A stretch of 7,310 bases of DNA from a virus (Duplodnaviria > Heunggongvirae > Uroviricota > Caudoviricetes): IMG/VR virus record IMGVR_UViG_2541047905_000008; one strand, 5' to 3'. Positions 1-7,310 of the stretch are shown piece after piece. The translations under genes were made by a program, and so were the position numbers. The notes below the pieces were generated by a model that searched no databases, had not been told where the DNA came from, and was given only the letters and a program-made list of their open reading frames with translations. Position 1 is the first letter of the stretch. The number at the start of each line of letters is the position of its first letter.

Positions 1-165
1 CTCATGCTGGCGAACCCAGACACGCAGAGTCTCCGGCGTACAGCCAATCTTTGGAGCAATGGAACAAATTGTCGCCCATTGTGAGTCATATTCGCCCTGA
101 CTTTCCAGAACCATACGGACTGCCCGTTGACGGACTTCAGGGGAAAAACGAGTATTTTTAGTCAT
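1..165 (-). CDS. IS3-family transposase OrfA (helix-turn-helix), N-terminal 55 codons; partial, continues beyond window start
   Basis: Reverse-strand translation from the ATG at 165-163 gives [55 protein letters not shown], open to the window edge. It is absent from the supplied ORF track because it has no stop in the window. The sequence matches the N-terminal HTH region of IS629-type OrfA from memory. Confidence 0.8.
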
Positions 166-219
166 CCTGTTTACCTCTTTCTCAGGAAGTTTAGTCTCCA
201 GGATTCCCGGGGCGGTTCA
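1..219 (-). mobile_element. IS3-family insertion sequence (IS629/IS1203-like), one end only; the rest lies left of the window
   Basis: Reverse complement of 196-219 reads TGAACCGCCCCGGGAATCCTGGAG, a TG-initiated terminal inverted repeat typical of the IS3 family, followed about 55 nt inward by the transposase OrfA start. The OrfA N-terminus matches the IS629/IS1203 OrfA as I recall it. The exact terminal nucleotide (219) is inferred from the TG...CA end rule. Confidence 0.75.
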
Positions 220-3153
220 CTTAATGAAACCACAGAGGAATTGAGCGGGGTTGCGCAAGCGCAGAGAGAAGCCGAGAAGGCCGGAAAACTTGCTGCCGCC
301 CAGCAGGAAGCGCAGACTCAGGCCTTTCAAAGAATGCTGGACAAGATCGACCCTCTGGCTGCGGCGCTAAGAAATCTTGAACAACAGCAGGATGAACTTA
401 ATGCTGCGTTTGCATCCGGGAAAATAAATGGTTCTCAGTTTGAGAATTATAGCCGAAAAATACAGGAAACACGGCGAGAGCTTACCGGAGAGGCTCAGGC
501 AGAGCGAGAAGCAGCAAAAGCGCATGATGAACAGGTTGCTGCTTTGCAACGTCTGATTGCTCAACTTGACCCTGTCGGAACTGCTTTTAATCGTCTGGTA
601 GAACAACAGAAACAGCTCAATGAAGCAAAAGCTAAGGGGATGCTCTCTCCTGAAATGTATGAGGAACTTTCTGGAAAACTTCGTGCTATGCGGAGTGAGC
701 TTGAGGTTACTCAATCTCAATTAAGCAAAACCGGAATGTCGGCAAAACAAACGGCTTTTGCTATGCGCATGTTGCCTGCACAAATGACGGATATTGTTGT
801 TGGGTTGTCCACTGGTCAGTCGCCTTTTATGGTGTTAATGCAGCAGGGCGGCCAGCTAAAAGATATGTTCGGTGGGATTGGCCCGGCGATCAAAGGTGTT
901 GGTTCTTATGTGCTGGGATTAATTAATCCTTTTACCCTGGCCGCAGCAGCCGTTGGCGTCTTAGGGCTGGCTTACTATAAAGGCTCTCAGGAGCAGGACG
1001 AATTTAATAAGTCTCTTATTCTTACCGGAAATCAGTTGGGGACAACCAGCGGGCAATTGGCCGATATAGTTCAACGTGCCGGGAATGCGGCTGATTCGAC
1101 AACTGGCGCTGCGGCGGCAGTATTAAACCAGCTTGTGCGTTCGGGAAAGGTAGCGAGCAGTTCGCTGGAGCAAGTGACGACAGCGATAGTAAAAACGAGC
1201 GAAGTAACAGGAATATCAACCGAACAACTGGTTAATGACTTCAATGAAATTGCAAAGGATCCTGTCAGTGCCATATCAAAACTTAATGATCAGTACCATT
1301 TTCTGACAATTGCGACTTATAACCAGATTAAGGCGCTACAGGATGAAGGGAACCAGCAGGAGGCCGCCCGCATTGCGACAGAAGCATACTCATCCTCAAT
1401 GATCCAGCGCACCAACCAGATTAAAGAAAATCTTGGTTATCTTGAGACTGCATGGAAAGCTGTCGCAGACTCCGCAAAATGGGCATGGGATTCCATGCTG
1501 GATATTGGCCGTGAGGCCTCCCTTGATCAAAAAATCTCAGATGTTCTCCGTCAAATTGATGAAATAGAAAAAAATACCCGACCCGGAGTTTTCGGGTTAG
1601 GTGGCATTGGAGATGGCGGAGCTCAAAATAAAAGGCTGGCACGATTAAAGCAGCAATTGGGCGTACTTCAAGCAGAAAAAATTGCTCAGGACGTACTAAA
1701 TTCATCAATAAACGATTACAACAAGCGACAACAGGAAGGAATTGAACTCAGACAGAGAGCAGATGCCTTTTCAAAACAATATCAGACCCGGGAGCAGCAG
1801 AGAGCTAGTGAACTTGCAAAACTGGAAAAACTAAAGAGTCAGTATTCAAAGGAAGAATATAATAATCTTATCGCTCAAATAAATGAGCGTTATAAAGATC
1901 CAAAGCAACCAAAGGCGAAAGGTTATTCGGATGATGCTGCCCAACGAATGATTGATCATCTGAATCAACAGAATGCGTTACTAAGTTCACAAACTGAATT
2001 AACCGTTAAATTAAGTTCCTCTGAACAGGAACTGGTTAAGTGGCGTCAGCAGATTGCCGACCTGGAGTCACGACCGTCATCGAAATTAACCAAGGATCAG
2101 AAATCGCTTCTCTTACACCGGGAAGAAATAACCGCGTTGATGGAGAAAAATGTTGCGATTGAAAAAAATAACAGGCTAATCAAGGAATCCGCCGAAATAG
2201 CTGCATGGCGTGATTCATTGCAGGCTTCGATTGATAATCGTCAACAGGGGTATGATATTCAGATTGCTGGTTATGGGGTTGGCGATAAAAATCAGCAACG
2301 CCAGCAGGAATTACTGCGGATTGAACGTGAATATAACAATCAGCGTCTGCAACTTGAACGTGACTATGCAGATAAATCCCGTGGGATGTCAAATCATGTT
2401 TTTCAGGAGAAAATGCAGGCTCTGAATGATGCTCTGGAACGAGAAAAAGAAATTGTCAGACAGAAAAACGAGCAGCTCGATATTCAGGCAGGAGACTGGG
2501 TTAGTGGTGCCTCCCAGGGATTCAATAACTGGCTGGATGACACTAAGGATATCAGTGAGCAGATAAAATCAACCACGACTCAGATGTTTGATGGAATGAC
2601 CGATGCGCTGGGTGATTTTGTCACGACAGGCAAAGCAAATTTTCGTTCTTTCGCTACTTCCGTGATTTCGGATCTTAGTCGAATAGCATTAAAGGCTTCA
2701 ATTACTGGGATTTTCGACAGCATTAGTAACAGTTCTTCTGGGGGGATTTTAGGAACTATCGGGAGTGCTATTAGTAAATTTATTCCGAATGCAAAGGGCG
2801 GTGTTTATGAGTCTCCGTCATTGAACACGTATTCGAACGGTATTTATGATTCCCCGCAATTTTTTGCTTTTGCAAGAGGGGCTGGTGTTTTTGGTGAGGC
2901 TGGTCCGGAAGCCATTATGCCATTAACACGAACTTCCGATGGTTCTCTTGGTGTCAGAGCTGTTAATAGTAAAAGTGGTAATGGAGGCGGAGATATTACC
3001 TATGCCCCTGTATACCAAATCACTATTCAAAATGACGGCCAGAATGGAGAGATTGGCCCTCAGGCAATAAAAGCACTTATGGGGATGGTTGATCAGCGGG
3101 TGCAGGGCAATCTGTTAAATATGCGACGTGATGGGGGAATGTTAAGTGGCTAA
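220..3153 (+). CDS. H: Phage tail tape measure protein (lambda gpH-like), 5' end interrupted by the IS element; 978 codons of tape-measure sequence
   Basis: Long ORF (track 127..3153) whose first 31 codons lie inside the IS terminal sequence, so the phage-derived part starts at 220. It has a coiled-coil-rich N-terminus, a conserved AMRMLPAQ...GQSP...QQGGQ.KD.FGG segment, a central hydrophobic/Gly-rich region, a [11 protein letters not shown] motif and a C-terminal [15 protein letters not shown]...RDGGMLSG tail resembling the lambda gpH C-terminus. It sits directly upstream of M-L-K-I-J. No in-frame ATG occurs until 334, so the native start is probably beyond the IS. Confidence 0.85.
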
Positions 3154-3478
3154 TACGGAAGAATTTCACTGGTTACCAGAGGATGGAATGAAAACAGAAA
3201 ATAAACCATCGATAAAAACTGTAAGATTTGGCGATGGTTATGAGCAACGAAGTCCAAATGGACTTAATCATTCTCTGCGCGTTTTCACCTGTGATTTCAA
3301 AGTTGAGGCGAATGAACGTGATTCATTTGAAAAATTTTTAGCCCGGCATGAAGGCTATAAATCTTTTTTTGGCGCCCGCCGGGTATTAACAGAAAAATCA
3401 GAGTGGTGTGTCGAACGTGGTCAGCGACAGAACATATCACCTATACCGATTTTTCGTGTCAGTTTGACGAAGTGGTGA
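3146..3478 (+). CDS. M: Minor tail protein M (lambda gpM homologue), probably frameshifted near the 3' end
   Basis: GTG start at 3146 overlaps the tape-measure stop (3151-3153), with a GGGGGA Shine-Dalgarno at 3133-3138. The N-terminal part, including [16 protein letters not shown], aligns with lambda gpM (VRFGDGYSQRAPAGLN). After the T7 run at 3364-3370 the lambda-like C-terminus continues in another frame. Alternative in-frame ATG at 3188. Confidence 0.8.
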
Positions 3479-3482
3479 TCTG

Positions 3483-4181
3483 ATGCAGGACATACAACAG
3501 GAAACGCTGAATGAATGCATTCGTGCGGAGCAGTCGGCCAGCGTGGTGCTCTGGGAAATCGACCTGACCGAGGTAGGCGGGGATCGCTACTTTTTCTGTA
3601 ATGAGCAGAACGAAAAAGGTGAGTCTGTCACCTGGCAGAGTCGGCAGTATCAGGCCTATCCCATTCAGGGGAGTGGATTTGAGATGAACGGCAAGGGCAG
3701 TGCTGCCCGTCCGACACTGGCGGTCTCTAACCTGCACGGCATGATCACCGGGATGGCGGAAGATCTGCAGAGTCTGGTCGGCGGAACGGTGGTCCGGCGT
3801 AAGGTTTACGCCCGCTTTCTGGATGCGGTGAACTTCGTCAACGGAAACAGCGAAGCCGATCCGGAGCAGGAGGTGATCAGCCGCTGGCGCATCGAGCAGT
3901 GCAGCGAACTGAGCGCGGTCAGTGCCTCTTTTGTACTGTCCACGCCGACTGAAACGGATGGCGCTGTTTTTCCGGGACGTATCATGCTGGCCAACACCTG
4001 CACCTGGACCTATCGCGGCGATGAGTGCGGTTATAGCGGTCCGGCGGTCGCGGATGAATATGACCAGCCGACGTCCGATATCACGAAGGATAAATGCAGC
4101 AAATGCCTGAGTGGCTGTAAGTTTCGCAATAATGTCGGCAACTTTGGCAGCTTCCTTTCCATTAACAAACTTTCGCAGTAA
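3483..4181 (+). CDS. L: Minor tail protein L (lambda gpL), 232 aa, tail tip complex component with C-terminal Cys cluster
   Basis: The 232-aa ORF MQDIQQETLNECIRAEQSASVVLWEIDLTEVGG... is near-identical to lambda gpL as recalled and the same length. The C-terminal cysteines (CTWTYRGDECGYSG ... CSKCLSGCKF) are consistent with the reported Fe-S cluster ligands of gpL. The ATG at 3483 is adjacent to the end of M. Confidence 0.95.
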   Translation: MQDIQQETLNECIRAEQSASVVLWEIDLTEVGGDRYFFCNEQNEKGESVTWQSRQYQAYPIQGSGFEMNGKGSAARPTLAVSNLHGMITGMAEDLQSLVGGTVVRRKVYARFLDAVNFVNGNSEADPEQEVISRWRIEQCSELSAVSASFVLSTPTETDGAVFPGRIMLANTCTWTYRGDECGYSGPAVADEYDQPTSDITKDKCSKCLSGCKFRNNVGNFGSFLSINKLSQ

Positions 4182-4186
4182 ATCCC

Positions 4187-4930
4187 ATGACAGAGACAGA
4201 ATCAGCGATTCTGGCGCACGCCCGGCGATGTGCGCCAGCGGAGTCGTGCGGCTTCGTGGTGAGAACGCCGGAGGAGGAAAGATATTTTCCCTGCGTGAAT
4301 ATCTCCGGTGAGCCGGAGGAGTATTTCCGGATGTCGCCGGAGGACTGGCTGAGTGCAGAAATGCAGGGAGAGATTGTGGCGCTGGTCCACAGCCACCCCG
4401 GTGGTCTGCCCTGGCTGAGTGAGGCCGACCGGCGGCTGCAGGTACAGAGTGATTTGCCGTGGTGGCTGGTCTGCCGGGGGGCGATTCATAAATTCCGCTG
4501 TGTGCCGCATCTCACCGGGCGGCGCTTTGAGCACGGGGTAACGGACTGTTACACGCTGTTCCGGGACGCTTACCATCTGGCGGGAATTGAGATGCCGGAT
4601 TTTCATCGCGGGGATGACTGGTGGCGTAACGGTCAGAATCTCTATCTGGATAATCTGGAGGCCACAGGGCTGTATCAGGTGCCGTTGTCAGCGGCGCAGC
4701 CGGGCGATGTGCTGCTGTGCTGTTTTGGTTCATCGGTGCCGAATCATGCCGCCATTTACTGTGGTGACAGCGAGCTGCTGCACCATATTCCTGAACAACT
4801 GAGCAAACGAGAGAGGTACACCGACAAATGGCAGCGACGCACACACTCCCTCTGGCGTCACCGGGCATGGCACGCATCTGCCTTTACGGGGATTTACAAC
4901 GATTTGGCCGCCGCATCGACCTTCGAGTGA
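4187..4930 (+). CDS. K: Tail assembly protein K (lambda gpK-like): N-terminal JAB/MPN metalloprotease-like domain plus C-terminal NlpC/P60 (C40) peptidase domain
   Basis: 247-aa ORF. The JAMM-type motif HSHPGGLPWLSEAD (HxHx7Sx2D) is at codons 68-81, with an upstream E-x-C-G (AESCGFVV) at codons 18-21. NlpC/P60-like catalytic candidates are Cys121 (VTDCYTLF), His187 (PNHAAIY) and His199/200. An alternative internal start at 4331 with a strong SD would give a 199-aa product, the length I recall for annotated lambda K. The 3' end overlaps I by 103 nt in a different frame. Confidence 0.88.
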   Translation: MTETESAILAHARRCAPAESCGFVVRTPEEERYFPCVNISGEPEEYFRMSPEDWLSAEMQGEIVALVHSHPGGLPWLSEADRRLQVQSDLPWWLVCRGAIHKFRCVPHLTGRRFEHGVTDCYTLFRDAYHLAGIEMPDFHRGDDWWRNGQNLYLDNLEATGLYQVPLSAAQPGDVLLCCFGSSVPNHAAIYCGDSELLHHIPEQLSKRERYTDKWQRRTHSLWRHRAWHASAFTGIYNDLAAASTFE

Positions 4931-5469
4931 AAACGGGGTCCGAAGCCATCCGGGCGCTGGCCATGCAGATCCCGGCATTTCGTCAGAAACTGAGCGACGG
5001 CTGGTACCAGGTACGCATTGCCGGGCGTGATGCAGGTGAAACCGAATTGTCTGCCCGTCTTAATGAGCCGCTGGAAAATGGTGCCGTGATCCATATCGTG
5101 CCGCGTCTGGCAGGAGCCAAAAGTGGCGGTGTGTTTCAGGCTGTGCTGGGGGCGGCTGTTATGGCGGTTGCTATATGGATGCCGGGGGTAGGAATTATGG
5201 CGAGTAATCTGCTGTTTTCTCTCGGTGCCAGTATGACGCTTGGCGGTGTTGCACAGATGCTGGCCCCTAAACCCAAAACCCCCCGCACACAGACAACGGA
5301 TAACGGCAAACAGAACACCTATTTTTCTTCACTGGATAACATGGTTGCCCAGGGCAATGTTCTGCCCGTTCTGTACGGTGAAATGCGCGTGGGATCACGT
5401 GTGGTATCTCAGGAGATCAGCACAGCAGATGAAGGTGATGGTGGTCAGGTTGTGGTGATTGGTCGCTGA
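4828..5469 (+). CDS. I: Tail assembly protein I (lambda gpI), ubiquitin-like N-terminal domain plus hydrophobic C-terminal region
   Basis: 213-aa ORF MAATHTLPLASPGMARICLYGDLQRFGRRIDLRVKTG... with C-terminus ...GNVLPVLYGEMRVGSRVVSQEISTADEGDGGQVVVIGR. It matches lambda gpI closely from memory except in the central hydrophobic segment and is 10 aa shorter. Position between K and J is as in lambda. Confidence 0.93.
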   Translation: MAATHTLPLASPGMARICLYGDLQRFGRRIDLRVKTGSEAIRALAMQIPAFRQKLSDGWYQVRIAGRDAGETELSARLNEPLENGAVIHIVPRLAGAKSGGVFQAVLGAAVMAVAIWMPGVGIMASNLLFSLGASMTLGGVAQMLAPKPKTPRTQTTDNGKQNTYFSSLDNMVAQGNVLPVLYGEMRVGSRVVSQEISTADEGDGGQVVVIGR

Positions 5470-5487
5470 TGAAAAACGTTTTATGTG

Positions 5488-5510
5488 AAACCGCCTCCGG
5501 GCGGTTTTAT
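5488..5510 (+). terminator. Candidate stem-loop / weak intrinsic terminator or attenuator in the 60-nt I-J spacer
   Basis: Perfect 8-bp inverted repeat AAACCGCC (5488-5495) / GGCGGTTT (5500-5507) with a 4-nt loop TCCG, followed by a T-rich tract (TTTTATCGTTTAT). The GC core is only 5 bp, so termination efficiency is uncertain. Confidence 0.3.
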
Positions 5511-5529
5511 CGTTTATGGAGCATGACGA

Positions 5530-7310
5530 ATGGGTAAAGGCAGCAGTAAGGGGCATACCCCGCGCGAAGCGAAGGACAACCTGAAGTCCACGCAGCTGCT
5601 GAGTGTGATTGATGCCATCAGCGAAGGGCCGGTTGAAGGTCCGGTGGATGGATTAAAAAGCGTGCTGCTGAACAGTACGCCGGTGCTGGACAGTGAGGGG
5701 AATACCAATATATCCGGCGTCACGGTGGTGTTCCGGGCCGGTGAGCAGGAGCAGACACCGCCGGAGGGATTTGAATCCTCCGGCTCCGAGACGGTGCTGG
5801 GTACGGAAGTGAAGTACGACACGCCGATTACCCGGACCATCACGTCGGCAAACATCGACCGTCTGCGCTTTACCTTCGGTGTGCAGGCACTGGTGGAAAC
5901 CACCTCAAAGGGGGACCGGAATCCGTCGGAAGTCCGCCTGCTGGTTCAGATACAGCGTAATGGTGGCTGGGTGACGGAAAAAGACATCACCATTAAAGGC
6001 AAAACCACCTCACAGTATCTGGCATCGGTGGTGGTGGGTGACCTGCCGCCGCGTCCGTTCAATATCCGGATGCGCAGGATGACGCCGGACAGCACCACAG
6101 ACCAGCTGCAGAACAAAACGCTCTGGTCGTCATACACCGAAATCATCGATGTGAAACAGTGCTACCCGAACACGGCACTGGTCGGCGTACAGGTGGATTC
6201 GGAGCAGTTCGGCAGCCAGCAGGTGAGCCGTAATTATCATCTGCGCGGGCGTATTCTGCAGGTGCCGTCGAACTATAACCCGCAGACTCGGCAATACAGC
6301 GGTATCTGGGACGGAACGTTTAAGCCAGCATACAGCAATAACATGGCCTGGTGTCTGTGGGATATGCTGACCCATCCACGCTACGGCATGGGGAAACGTC
6401 TTGGTGCGGCGGATGTGGACAAATGGGCGCTGTATGTCATCGGCCAGTACTGCGACCAGTCAGTGCCGGACGGCTTTGGCGGCACGGAGCCGCGCATCAC
6501 CTGTAATGCGTACCTGACCACACAGCGCAAGGCGTGGGATGTGCTCAGTGATTTCTGCTCGGCGATGCGCTGTATGCCGGTATGGAACGGGCAGACGCTG
6601 ACGTTCGTGCAGGACCGGCCATCAGATAAGGTGTGGACCTATAACCGCAGTAATGTGGTGATGCCGGATGATGGCGCGCCGTTCCGCTACAGCTTCAGCG
6701 CCCTGAAGGACCGCCATAATGCCGTTGAGGTGAACTGGATTGACCCGGATAACGGCTGGGAGACGGCGACAGAGCTTGTTGAAGATACGCAGGCCATTGC
6801 CCGTTACGGTCGTAACGTCACGAAGATGGATGCCTTTGGCTGTACCAGCCGGGGGCAGGCACACCGCGCCGGGCTGTGGCTGATTAAAACGGAGCTGCTG
6901 GAAACGCAGACCGTGGACTTCAGCGTGGGCGCAGAAGGGCTTCGCCATGTACCGGGCGATGTCATTGAAATCTGCGATGATGACTATGCCGGTATCAGCA
7001 CCGGCGGGCGCGTGCTGGCGGTAAACAGCCAGACCCGGACGCTGACGCTCGACCGTGAAATCACGCTGCCATCTTCCGGCACCACGCTGATAAGCCTGGT
7101 TGACGGGCAGGGGAGTCCGGTCAGCGTGGAGGTTCAGTCCGTCACCGACGGCGTGAAGGTAAAAGTGAGCCGTGTTCCTGACGGTGTTGCTGAATACAGC
7201 GTATGGGGGCTGAAGCTGCCGACGCTGCGCCAGCGACTGTTCCGCTGCGTGAGTATCCGTGAGAACGACGACGGCACGTATGCCATCACCGCCGTGCAGC
7301 ATGTGCCGGA
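5530..7310 (+). CDS. J: Host specificity / central tail fibre protein J (lambda gpJ), N-terminal ~593 codons; partial, continues beyond window end
   Basis: ATG at 5530 preceded by GGAG at 5516-5519. Translation MGKGSSKGHTPREAKDNLKSTQLLSVIDAISEGPVEGPVDGLKSVLLNSTPVLD... stays open to the window end and matches the lambda gpJ N-terminus as recalled. It is not in the ORF track because there is no stop within the window. Confidence 0.95.
   Translation, partial: MGKGSSKGHTPREAKDNLKSTQLLSVIDAISEGPVEGPVDGLKSVLLNSTPVLDSEGNTNISGVTVVFRAGEQEQTPPEGFESSGSETVLGTEVKYDTPITRTITSANIDRLRFTFGVQALVETTSKGDRNPSEVRLLVQIQRNGGWVTEKDITIKGKTTSQYLASVVVGDLPPRPFNIRMRRMTPDSTTDQLQNKTLWSSYTEIIDVKQCYPNTALVGVQVDSEQFGSQQVSRNYHLRGRILQVPSNYNPQTRQYSGIWDGTFKPAYSNNMAWCLWDMLTHPRYGMGKRLGAADVDKWALYVIGQYCDQSVPDGFGGTEPRITCNAYLTTQRKAWDVLSDFCSAMRCMPVWNGQTLTFVQDRPSDKVWTYNRSNVVMPDDGAPFRYSFSALKDRHNAVEVNWIDPDNGWETATELVEDTQAIARYGRNVTKMDAFGCTSRGQAHRAGLWLIKTELLETQTVDFSVGAEGLRHVPGDVIEICDDDYAGISTGGRVLAVNSQTRTLTLDREITLPSSGTTLISLVDGQGSPVSVEVQSVTDGVKVKVSRVPDGVAEYSVWGLKLPTLRQRLFRCVSIRENDDGTYAITAVQHVP

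Follow-up and report, generated by a model that had tools for sequence, protein, structure and literature searches.

The window (the whole stretch of DNA analysed, 7,310 nucleotides) carries the genes H, M, L, K, I and J in this order on one strand, and each of them matched the corresponding Pfam family above its gathering score. The reading frames are not intact across the cluster: H is truncated, M is frameshifted and J runs off the window. The first 218 nucleotides (1..218, minus strand) correspond to the end of an IS3-family insertion sequence, including the N-terminus of orfA. The translation of positions 1-165 on this strand matched Pfam HTH_Tnp_1, and positions 1-219 were 97.3% identical to the IS3-family element of another locus (L002). 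The element, whose terminus ...GGGGCGGTTCA lies at 218, is presumably IS629/IS1203-like, a name that follows the RefSeq annotation of one match (H37). It interrupts the tape-measure gene after its first 300 nt, at 218/219, and relatives could be aligned to the window only from 219 on. An insertion at this position of H was found in no complete E. coli genome, the best full-length matches being split into 2-4 pieces, and an exact 40-mer spanning the IS/H junction had no match in species-representative genomes.

The tape-measure gene H (219..3153, plus strand) is of the Rac type (ynaA/tmpR family; Pfam TMP_2, TMP_4 and Tape_meas_lam_C) and has a GC content of 45.4%. Owing to the IS insertion, it lacks its first 300 nt; the intact gene measures 3234 nt in a relative (L001). 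H is followed by gene M (3146..3483, plus strand; gpM family, Rac type; GC 41%), in which a -1 frameshift was found in a run of T residues. This run counts seven T in the window (3364-3370) and eight in relatives, the extra T being present in all eight that were aligned. As found, the M ORF stops at 3478; the intact frame would stop at the TGA of 3481-3483 and share one base with the ATG of L, in a TGATG stop/start overlap. When the missing T was restored, M matched Pfam Phage_min_tail from end to end and its product was the 112-aa M protein of L001. The prophage of the window is thus defective, with H cut by an IS3-family element and M frameshifted.

Downstream, on the same plus strand, lie the lambda-type minor tail protein gene L (3483..4181; Pfam Phage_tail_L; GC 55.9%), the tail tip assembly protein gene K (4187..4930; JAB/MPN and NlpC/P60; Pfam Prok-JAB and NLPC_P60), the tail assembly protein gene I (4828..5469; Pfam Lambda_tail_I), which overlaps the end of K, and the first 593 codons of the tip attachment protein gene J (5530..7310; Pfam FNIII-A_GpJ and Phage-tail_3), which continues past the window end. 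The gene order, the overlaps (H/M, the TGATG of M/L, and K/I) and the Pfam families are the same as in the tail tip cluster of lambda. A sequence-only reading of this DNA had described L, K, I and J as near-identical to lambda. This description holds for K (97% identity) and J (98.3% over residues 1-593) and roughly for L (93%), but it is overstated for I (79%), the most variable gene of the block. With the lambda-like phage PhiR49_1, the identities were 99.1% for L, 100% for K and 99.3% for J over the same residues. In contrast, H (28% protein identity to lambda) and M (42% after frame correction) belong to another, AT-rich sequence family, and the same reading had judged them to be only distantly lambda-like at the protein level. 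The two tape-measure proteins also differ in length, with 853 aa in lambda versus 1077 aa in intact Rac-type relatives.

The base composition was examined by a two-segment likelihood scan of positions 219-7310. The change point was located at 3521 (2-lnL support 3465-3537), the GC content passing from 44.9% over 219-3521 to 58.0% over 3522-7310. The log-likelihood ratio at this point was 61.2, while the maxima reached in 1000 block shuffles were 11.9, 24.2 and 52.4 for blocks of 30, 150 and 300 nt, respectively. The GC step proposed at the M/L boundary from the letters alone is therefore real and lies where it had been put. Gene by gene, GC and GC3 were 0.454 and 0.395 for H, 0.411 and 0.315 for the whole M ORF (0.385 and 0.264 for its unshifted part), 0.559 and 0.674 for L, 0.593 and 0.673 for K, 0.564 and 0.551 for I, and 0.591 and 0.723 for J, so that GC3 ranges from 0.26 to 0.40 in H and M versus 0.67 to 0.72 in L, K and J. 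Codon usage was not uniform either: the RSCU values of H and M were uncorrelated with those of L-K-I-J (r = -0.03), whereas the same gene sets of lambda gave r = 0.91. As an empirical null, the GC step at M/L was computed with 1.5 kb on each side for 65 gpM-bearing loci from other bacteria, which yielded a mean of +0.019 (sd 0.048). The step of the window, +0.152, exceeded all 65, and the next largest (+0.147) came from its two close relatives. Furthermore, the H and M genes of lambda, PhiR49_1 and the Stx phage YYZ-2008 are as GC-rich as their own L-J. No promoter or terminator signals above shuffle expectation were detected at the junction.

The two sides of the window also have different relatives. 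When they were searched separately by BLASTN, as the earlier reading had suggested, positions 220-3480 matched 10 phage records only (vB_EcoS prophage-derived contigs and Salmonella phage SPF_0923), at 98.4-99.9%, versus 272 records for positions 3483-7310. PhiR49_1 was the best match on the right (98.6%); it carries lambda-type V-G-T-H-M and showed no DNA match to the left half. The closest partner of the right half is thus PhiR49_1-like rather than lambda itself (about 92%). The records that matched the left half at 98-99.5% have L-J genes at only about 93.5%.

The comparison with PhiR49_1 revealed the fine structure of the seam. Neither lambda nor PhiR49_1 has DNA homology to H or M, and BLAST alignments to both begin at 3461. 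They open with a short patch (3461..3523, plus strand) that takes in 22 nt at the end of M, crosses the stop/start overlap and reaches 41 nt into L. This patch is 83% identical to both phages, with unalignable DNA on its left and a near-100% tract on its right, and the GC change point falls inside it. Eleven mismatches to PhiR49_1 were counted in 3468-3521, then only one in 3522-5366, where 1797 consecutive nt (3570-5366) match perfectly. The shared tract (3524..6893, plus strand; about 99.6% identity, 15 mismatches) takes in most of L, runs through K and I and ends ~455 codons into J. After about 6950, identity to PhiR49_1 drops to only 90-92%.

De Paepe et al. (2014, PLoS Genet, PMC3945230) define a trace of homologous recombination by a tract of near-identity bordered by DNA whose partial identity exceeds the background. 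Over 3461-7310, the window and PhiR49_1 are 98.5% identical, beyond the 90% of the shared blocks in that work. Forced alignments of H-M gave about 40-45%, and positions 3440-3460 gave 24%, so that the 83% patch on the left is well over the 10 points above background of that definition, although this flank is just 63 nt long, near the 50-bp window of the paper. Because the 83% patch gives way to a single mismatch over 3522-5366, the recent crossover is placed about 40 nt inside L, the exchanged tract starting at 3522-3524, a pattern characteristic of relaxed homologous recombination and not of a break precisely at the gene boundary. The sequence-only reading had proposed a recombination joint between two phage lineages at a gene boundary; the joint is supported, but the recent crossover lies within L. 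M and L overlap by one base, which leaves no intergenic joint. The patch 3461-3523 is probably the crossover zone, judging from this alignment, but its conservation may instead reflect coding and translational-coupling constraint, and not the remains of a crossover.

The left side could be assigned to the Rac family. Positions 219-854 are 98.6% identical to ynaA of the Rac prophage of K-12 (NC_000913; ydaY-ynaA/tmpR-lomR-stfR region), which places the window in this family. A prophage of this family is expected at the ttcA / uspF-ompN locus, with ydaY upstream of its tape-measure gene; the closest intact relative, L001, does lie at this Rac locus, with uspF and ompN flanking it and ydaY in that place. 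In this genome, the region from terminase to M has a GC content of 41-53%, and only L to mid-J reaches 54-62%. L-K-I-J is thus the odd block of its own genome; the other parts of the Rac-type virion module are at 45-50%. K-12 Rac differs from the window by a deletion extending from inside the tape measure (window position 854) to lom, and has no M, L, K, I, J or junction; the window copy retains M-J and the junction, but it is disabled by the IS element in H and the frameshift in M. A close derivation of Rac-type H-M from the type of YYZ-2008 was considered and rejected, identity being just 36% for H (C-terminal 420 aa) and 49% for M. The H and M of this phage are barely closer to the Rac type than those of lambda, with 66-73% nucleotide similarity by blastn at the 3' ends.

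The junction is not peculiar to this record. It was found whole in 708 of 5426 complete E. coli genomes, the L side being present in 4350 of them, and it is fixed in the lineage. Among Rac-type relatives, H-M is nearly clonal while L-K-I-J is patchy: nucleotide diversity (π) was 0.9% for H and 0.33% for M versus 6.3% for L, 7.4% for K, 11% for I and 4.3% for J. The rates of difference on the left and right diverged in five of six comparisons (Fisher p from 1e-34 to 1e-81), and the same H-M, at 99.5% identity, is joined to L-J alleles that are 6-9% apart. The left side is not always clonal, one Rac-type relative (L010) differing by about 5.5% to the left as well as to the right of the junction. 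Six Rac-type relatives retain a near-identical M and first depart from the window between 3496 and 3720 (3496-3599 in four of them).

In a genome scan, close relatives of Rac-type M in other species were found only in Shigella flexneri and Escherichia ruysiae, with the same step. The scan revealed no Rac-type M with a native L in other genera, all remaining matches being at most 45% identical. The informative cases came from a protein search, namely Citrobacter sedlakii (L015) and one metagenomic contig (L016). In the latter, Rac-type H-M (80-82% nucleotide identity) is followed by an L of low GC (44.2%, GC3 0.38), with no sharp GC step; compared with the window, its L is less similar (71%) than its H (82%), though L is the more conserved protein family. 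L016, L015 and YYZ-2008, all with diverged L alleles (75-82%), likewise become homologous to lambda at 3461. Position 3461 is therefore the edge of a conserved block and not the site of one cut. The idea that mEp460- or cdtI-type phages took part in a three-way junction at M/L was also examined and rejected: lambda and mEp460 are already homologous (89%) over the 3' end of H and all of M, and their joint therefore lies elsewhere. A literature search found nothing specific to this junction or to PhiR49_1.

Taking these observations on composition, phylogeny, position and population together, we consider it highly probable, as one joint judgement, that the window represents the tail genes of a defective prophage of the Rac family, from E. 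coli or Shigella, and that it contains a mosaic seam where Rac-type, AT-rich H-M meets lambda-type, GC-rich L-K-I-J through homologous exchange. Upstream of about 3461, the lineage would have kept its own H and M, whose composition matches that of the other Rac-type head and tail-shaft genes, and L-K-I-J belongs to a pool of alleles that is shared among the lambda-like phages and prophages found in E. coli. The direction suggested by contig L016 is import of the lambda-type block into a Rac-type genome. The block would have been brought in, and would still be reshuffled, by homologous recombination among lambdoid genomes that reside in the same cell or infect it, possibly via phage Rad52-like recombinases (Red-beta, RecT), as L-K-I-J is the sole part of the region conserved enough between lineages for pairing. 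Homology sets in 22 nt before the L start, and these 22 nt contain the conserved C-terminus of M, the ribosome-binding site of L and the TGATG overlap. The latest exchange would have crossed over within about 60 nt of this edge, between 3521 and 3569, and left the near-identical PhiR49_1 tract up to about 6890, with either a Rac-type or a PhiR49_1-like genome as donor.

A more specific possibility is that the conserved ~60-140 nt at the end of M and start of L, with the M C-terminus, the L ribosome-binding site, the TGATG overlap and the L N-terminus, act as a preferred crossover "linker", by which L-K-I-J cassettes are swapped onto unrelated tape-measure/M/shaft modules. This we regard as rather doubtful: the first differences at 3496-3720 are compatible with it, but equally expected from patchy recombination across a shared block of 4 kb. 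If true, it would mean that the contact between gpM and gpL accommodates M proteins that are only ~42% identical, and that whole tail-tip cassettes, hence receptor specificity, are swapped repeatedly.

Among the alternatives to homologous exchange, an illegitimate joint at the M/L boundary, kept since only boundary joints give viable phages (the Hendrix/Juhala model), deserves the most attention. The alignable DNA of Rac-type and lambda-type genomes does start abruptly at 3461, essentially the end of M; M and L are separate assembly proteins, for which a boundary joint would be functionally tolerable; and about 70% of mosaics have no flanking homology (De Paepe et al. 2014, PMC3945230). However, the near-identical tract begins inside L, after an 83% patch that spans the boundary, and this start together with the flanking homology favours a homologous origin for the visible event. 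In addition, the recurrence of the 3461 onset next to diverged L alleles and the patchy L-J identity among Rac-type relatives, which shows homologous exchange to be continuing, argue against it. An illegitimate origin thus appears unlikely for the joint as observed, but the founding joint between Rac-type H-M and L-K-I-J may have been non-homologous.

Vertical descent without any exchange, H and M evolving faster and drifting toward AT while L-K-I-J was structurally constrained, is very improbable. It agrees with the lower conservation of H and M in all lineage pairs examined (27-49% amino acid identity versus 61-98% for L-K-I-J), an excess seen even between lambda and YYZ-2008, where GC is uniform. 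Nevertheless, a jump of GC3 from about 0.3-0.4 to 0.67-0.72 is beyond protein constraint, and the GC-rich H and M of lambda, PhiR49_1 and YYZ-2008 do not follow such a drift. Nor does it agree with the 1797 nt free of substitutions, at synonymous sites too, in a comparison with a phage that cannot be aligned over H and M, or with near-identical H-M paired with different L-J alleles. Finally, an assembly chimera or IS-driven rearrangement, at which the IS end and the homopolymer frameshift in M might hint, is scarcely credible and already refuted, since many independent assemblies carry the identical collinear junction (the 708 E. coli genomes, 10 phage records, S. flexneri and E. ruysiae) and the IS lies 3.2 kb away from it.

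The seam, which we attribute to homologous exchange, is textbook lambdoid mosaicism, already known, and no new phenomenon. Lambdoid genomes are reportedly modular, with joints at gene boundaries, a view said to go back to Botstein in 1980, Hendrix and colleagues in 1999 and Juhala and colleagues in 2000 (HK97/HK022). Mosaicism by relaxed homologous recombination, in which temperate phages exchange DNA with each other's (defective) prophages, is the subject of the 2014 study and reportedly of earlier lambdoid work from that group. As modular theory expects, the transition from unrelated to closely related DNA is abrupt, within tens of bases of a gene boundary of the late operon, and gene order is kept despite replacement; what differs is that the recent tract starts inside L, with flanking homology. 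The seam also resembles the mosaics of De Paepe et al. (2014, PMC3945230) in its block of more than 90% identity between otherwise unrelated genomes, in its partially identical flank, and in the pairing of a defective Rac-family prophage with an inducible lambda-like phage, exchange occurring within the lambdoid gene pool. The Rac-lambda exchanges of that study were experimental and concerned the side tail fibre genes stf/tfa, whereas the window involves the tail tip genes L-K-I-J, a region lost from K-12 Rac.

The window therefore adds an illustration and a mapped breakpoint that fit established models of lambdoid mosaicism, with no new principle. It offers a clean example of a lineage-private Rac-type module (head, shaft, tape measure and M) welded to a shared tail-tip cassette, drawn from a pool common to most lambdoid prophages in E. 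coli. As this cassette includes J, the receptor-binding protein, its exchange can transfer host range from one phage lineage to another, with defective prophages serving both as reservoirs of tail genes and as recipients for them.

The tape-measure gene H (219..3153) carried the Pfam domains TMP_2, TMP_4 and Tape_meas_lam_C, and M (3146..3483) carried Phage_min_tail once its frame was corrected. Downstream, Phage_tail_L was identified in L, Prok-JAB and NlpC/P60 in K, Lambda_tail_I in I, and FNIII-A_GpJ with Phage-tail_3 in the first 593 codons of J. At the protein level, H and M were 28% and 42% identical to lambda, in keeping with the only distant likeness proposed for them in the sequence-only reading. 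Identities of 93%, 97%, 79% and 98% were obtained for L, K, I and J, respectively; the description of these four proteins as near-identical to lambda was right overall, except for I. This gene, the most diverse of the block (nucleotide diversity, pi, 0.11), contained a hypervariable patch (5019-5318) showing 61-75% identity to lambda and 53-77% to most Rac-type relatives, with flanks more than 90% identical. The 60 nt separating I from J include a G+C-rich hairpin (AACCGCC-TCCG-GGCGGTT, 5490-5512), followed by TTTAT, that resembles a small stem-loop or weak terminator; the terminator scan gave no flag.

The sharp GC break claimed at the M/L boundary was present where it had been placed. When analyzed in 300-nt windows over the whole window, GC content was 40-45% from ~1200 to 3500 and 52-64% from ~3400 on. 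A two-segment likelihood scan of 219-7310 gave a change point at 3521 (2-lnL support interval 3465-3537), with 44.9% GC on its left versus 58.0% on its right and a log-likelihood ratio of 61.2; the maxima obtained after shuffling (1000 trials each) were 11.9, 24.2 and 52.4 for blocks of 30, 150 and 300 nt, respectively. The break was strongest at synonymous sites, GC at the third codon position (GC3) rising from 0.395 (H) and 0.26-0.35 (M) to 0.674 (L), 0.673 (K) and 0.723 (J). Codon usage was not uniform either: relative synonymous usage in H+M was uncorrelated with that in L-K-I-J of the window (r = -0.03), whereas the same comparison within lambda gave r = 0.91, and L-K-I-J of the window versus L-K-I-J of lambda gave r = 0.97. 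An empirical null was drawn from 65 gpM-containing loci of other proteobacteria, in which GC stepped by +0.019 on average at the M/L boundary (sd 0.048). Against this null, the step of +0.152 in the window was the top value, matched only by two close relatives; a relative in Citrobacter sedlakii showed a small step (0.52 to 0.56).

Upon separate BLASTN searches, the two halves had different best matches. The left half (220-3480) matched only 10 phage records at 98.4-99.9% identity, namely nine prophage-derived vB_EcoS contigs and Salmonella phage SPF_0923. For 3483-7310, matches were found in 272 phage records and in 4350 of the 5426 complete E. coli genomes. The best right-hand match was the lambda-like phage PhiR49_1 (98.6% over 3483-7310), whose V, G, T, H and M are of lambda type; no alignable DNA was found between its H/M and those of the window. 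A recombination joint between two phage lineages was therefore supported, the partner being PhiR49_1-like and not lambda itself. In the record of vB_EcoS-683R6, the alignment breaks within K (~8466-8524, window 4585-4690; 29% identity in a forced alignment) and, at that place, K is not annotated and only an opposite-strand hypothetical ORF is found, which suggests that K is disrupted or the record misassembled.

The joint had been proposed to lie at the gene boundary; it is indeed near M/L, some tens of bases within the coding sequences. The stop codon of M shares one base with the start codon of L (TGATG), leaving no intergenic space. Alignments to lambda-type genomes start at 3461, 22 nt upstream of the L start codon, and 11 of the 63 positions in 3461-3523 differ from PhiR49_1 and lambda (83% identity). 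By comparison with PhiR49_1, a single mismatch (3569) was present in 3522-5366 and 15 in 3524-6893, and identity dropped to 90-92% past ~6950. The boundary of the recent exchange is located ~40 nt within L, and the edge of cross-lineage homology 22 nt within M. As the similarity of lambda DNA to phage YYZ-2008, the C. sedlakii locus and the metagenomic contig L016 also stops at 3461, this edge is not peculiar to the event in the window and is just the start of the conserved L-K-I-J block. The last 22 conserved bases of M would encode the conserved M C-terminus and include the likely L ribosome-binding site and the stop/start overlap, roles that plausibly explain the homology patch. A second mosaic transition was observed within J (~6890-7310): after ~6950, identity was 90-93% to PhiR49_1 and to the otherwise identical L001, an intact Rac-type relative from E. 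coli GN06156, and over 7119-7310 identity to lambda itself climbed to 99-100%.

De Paepe et al. (PMC3945230) define the trace left by homologous recombination as a near-identical tract with flanking partial identity above background; such traces were shown experimentally between lambda and defective prophages, Rac included, and are mainly due to Rad52-like recombinases of phages, which act on homology that is short and diverged. The window fits this definition, with its near-identical tract and short partial-identity flank over an unalignable background, and homologous exchange inside the conserved block is thereby favoured for the recent joint over an illegitimate event at the M/L boundary; the left crossover would have occurred within the 3461-3569 zone. 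Illegitimate recombination at the boundary may account for the ancient founding event, in which a Rac-type H-M was first joined to an L-K-I-J block, but is at odds with the recent one, since the near-identical tract starts ~40 nt inside L, after the 83% patch. Differential evolutionary rates without transfer are excluded by the GC3 jump and by 1797 nt fully identical, synonymous sites included, to a phage with unalignable H/M. An assembly artefact or IS-mediated rearrangement is excluded by hundreds of independent collinear copies.

On the left side, window 219-854 was 98.6% identical to ynaA, which in E. coli K-12 is what remains of the tape-measure gene of the cryptic prophage Rac. The homology ends at 854, where ynaA runs into lomR (17389 in the K-12 Rac locus L007); this point is the left end of the K-12 Rac deletion, by which M, L, K, I and J were lost together with most of the tape-measure gene. 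L001 lies at the Rac locus, adjoining uspF and ompN, in the order terminase, P22-type capsid, tail tube, ydaY, 1077-aa tape measure, M, L, K, I, J, lom and tail fibres. Its GC content is 41-53% throughout from terminase to M, the inserted ISEc31 excepted, and 54-62% only from L to mid-J, so that the GC-rich L-K-I-J is a compositional outlier within its own genome.

L016 (ENA ERZ27254723 contig k141_25771, 1-9196) carries a Rac-type H and M with 82% and 80% nucleotide identity to the window. Its own L has 44.2% GC (GC3 0.38) and is 71% identical to that of the window, below the value for H; GC climbs only gradually through I and J (~51-52%), and L-J is ~78% identical to lambda. From L onward, this contig may have the look expected of an un-replaced native tail-tip block in an AT-rich lineage. 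This pattern supports import of lambda-type alleles into E. coli Rac-type genomes, and we infer, for the direction from this one contig, that L-K-I-J is the immigrant block. The mosaic reading is upheld with three refinements, concerning the partner, the joint position and the immigrant block. In L016, gene calling gave no K between L and I. In YYZ-2008 (L008 5685-7351), an anti-repressor (Ant) gene lies between L and K within the tail operon, and in the Citrobacter prophage (L015 1225-5047) KilA-N, Arc-like and ANT genes lie between ydaY and the tape-measure gene.

The copy in the window is damaged. The end of an IS3-family element (1-218, minus strand; orfA N-terminus, HTH_Tnp_1) is inserted 300 nt into H; we take it to be IS629/IS1203-like from the RefSeq annotation of a match. 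No IS was found at this exact H position in complete E. coli or species-representative genomes. In M, a T7 run (3364-3370) replaces the T8 present in 8/8 aligned relatives, a -1 frameshift that alters the final 35 codons. An identical 110-aa frameshifted product was found in 123 blocks of a public assembly collection, two NCBI assemblies among them, and H is intact in one of these two; this recurrence indicates a recurring allele, which is probably real. Other M variants (P0002, P0011, P0012) are frameshifted at the same or nearby homopolymer runs, and in this family of prophages the homopolymers of M seem to be repeated sites of decay. As judged from its sequence, the prophage is incapable of making tails.

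The whole H-M/L junction was present in 708 complete E. coli genomes, and also in Shigella flexneri and E. ruysiae; it is therefore an old lineage feature that has become fixed, not an artefact. Among Rac-type relatives (the diverged L010 left out), pi was 0.9% in H and 0.33% in M, and the values for L, K, I and J were 6.3%, 7.4%, 11% and 4.3%, respectively, with identity over L-J patchy along its length. The rate of differences was distinct on the two sides of the junction in 5 of 6 comparisons (Fisher p 1e-34 to 1e-81); in L010, divergence was even, ~5.5% on either side. The low H-M and high, patchy L-J diversity indicates that one H-M was joined to several L-K-I-J alleles. Copies of the lambda-type block occupy a median of 2 and a maximum of 12 places per E. 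coli genome. These comparisons indicate that the right-hand block goes on exchanging with a large E. coli lambda-type pool, H-M having no such partners. The M/L seam is an instance of a phenomenon already well understood, in a prophage family that is very common, and adds little that is new.
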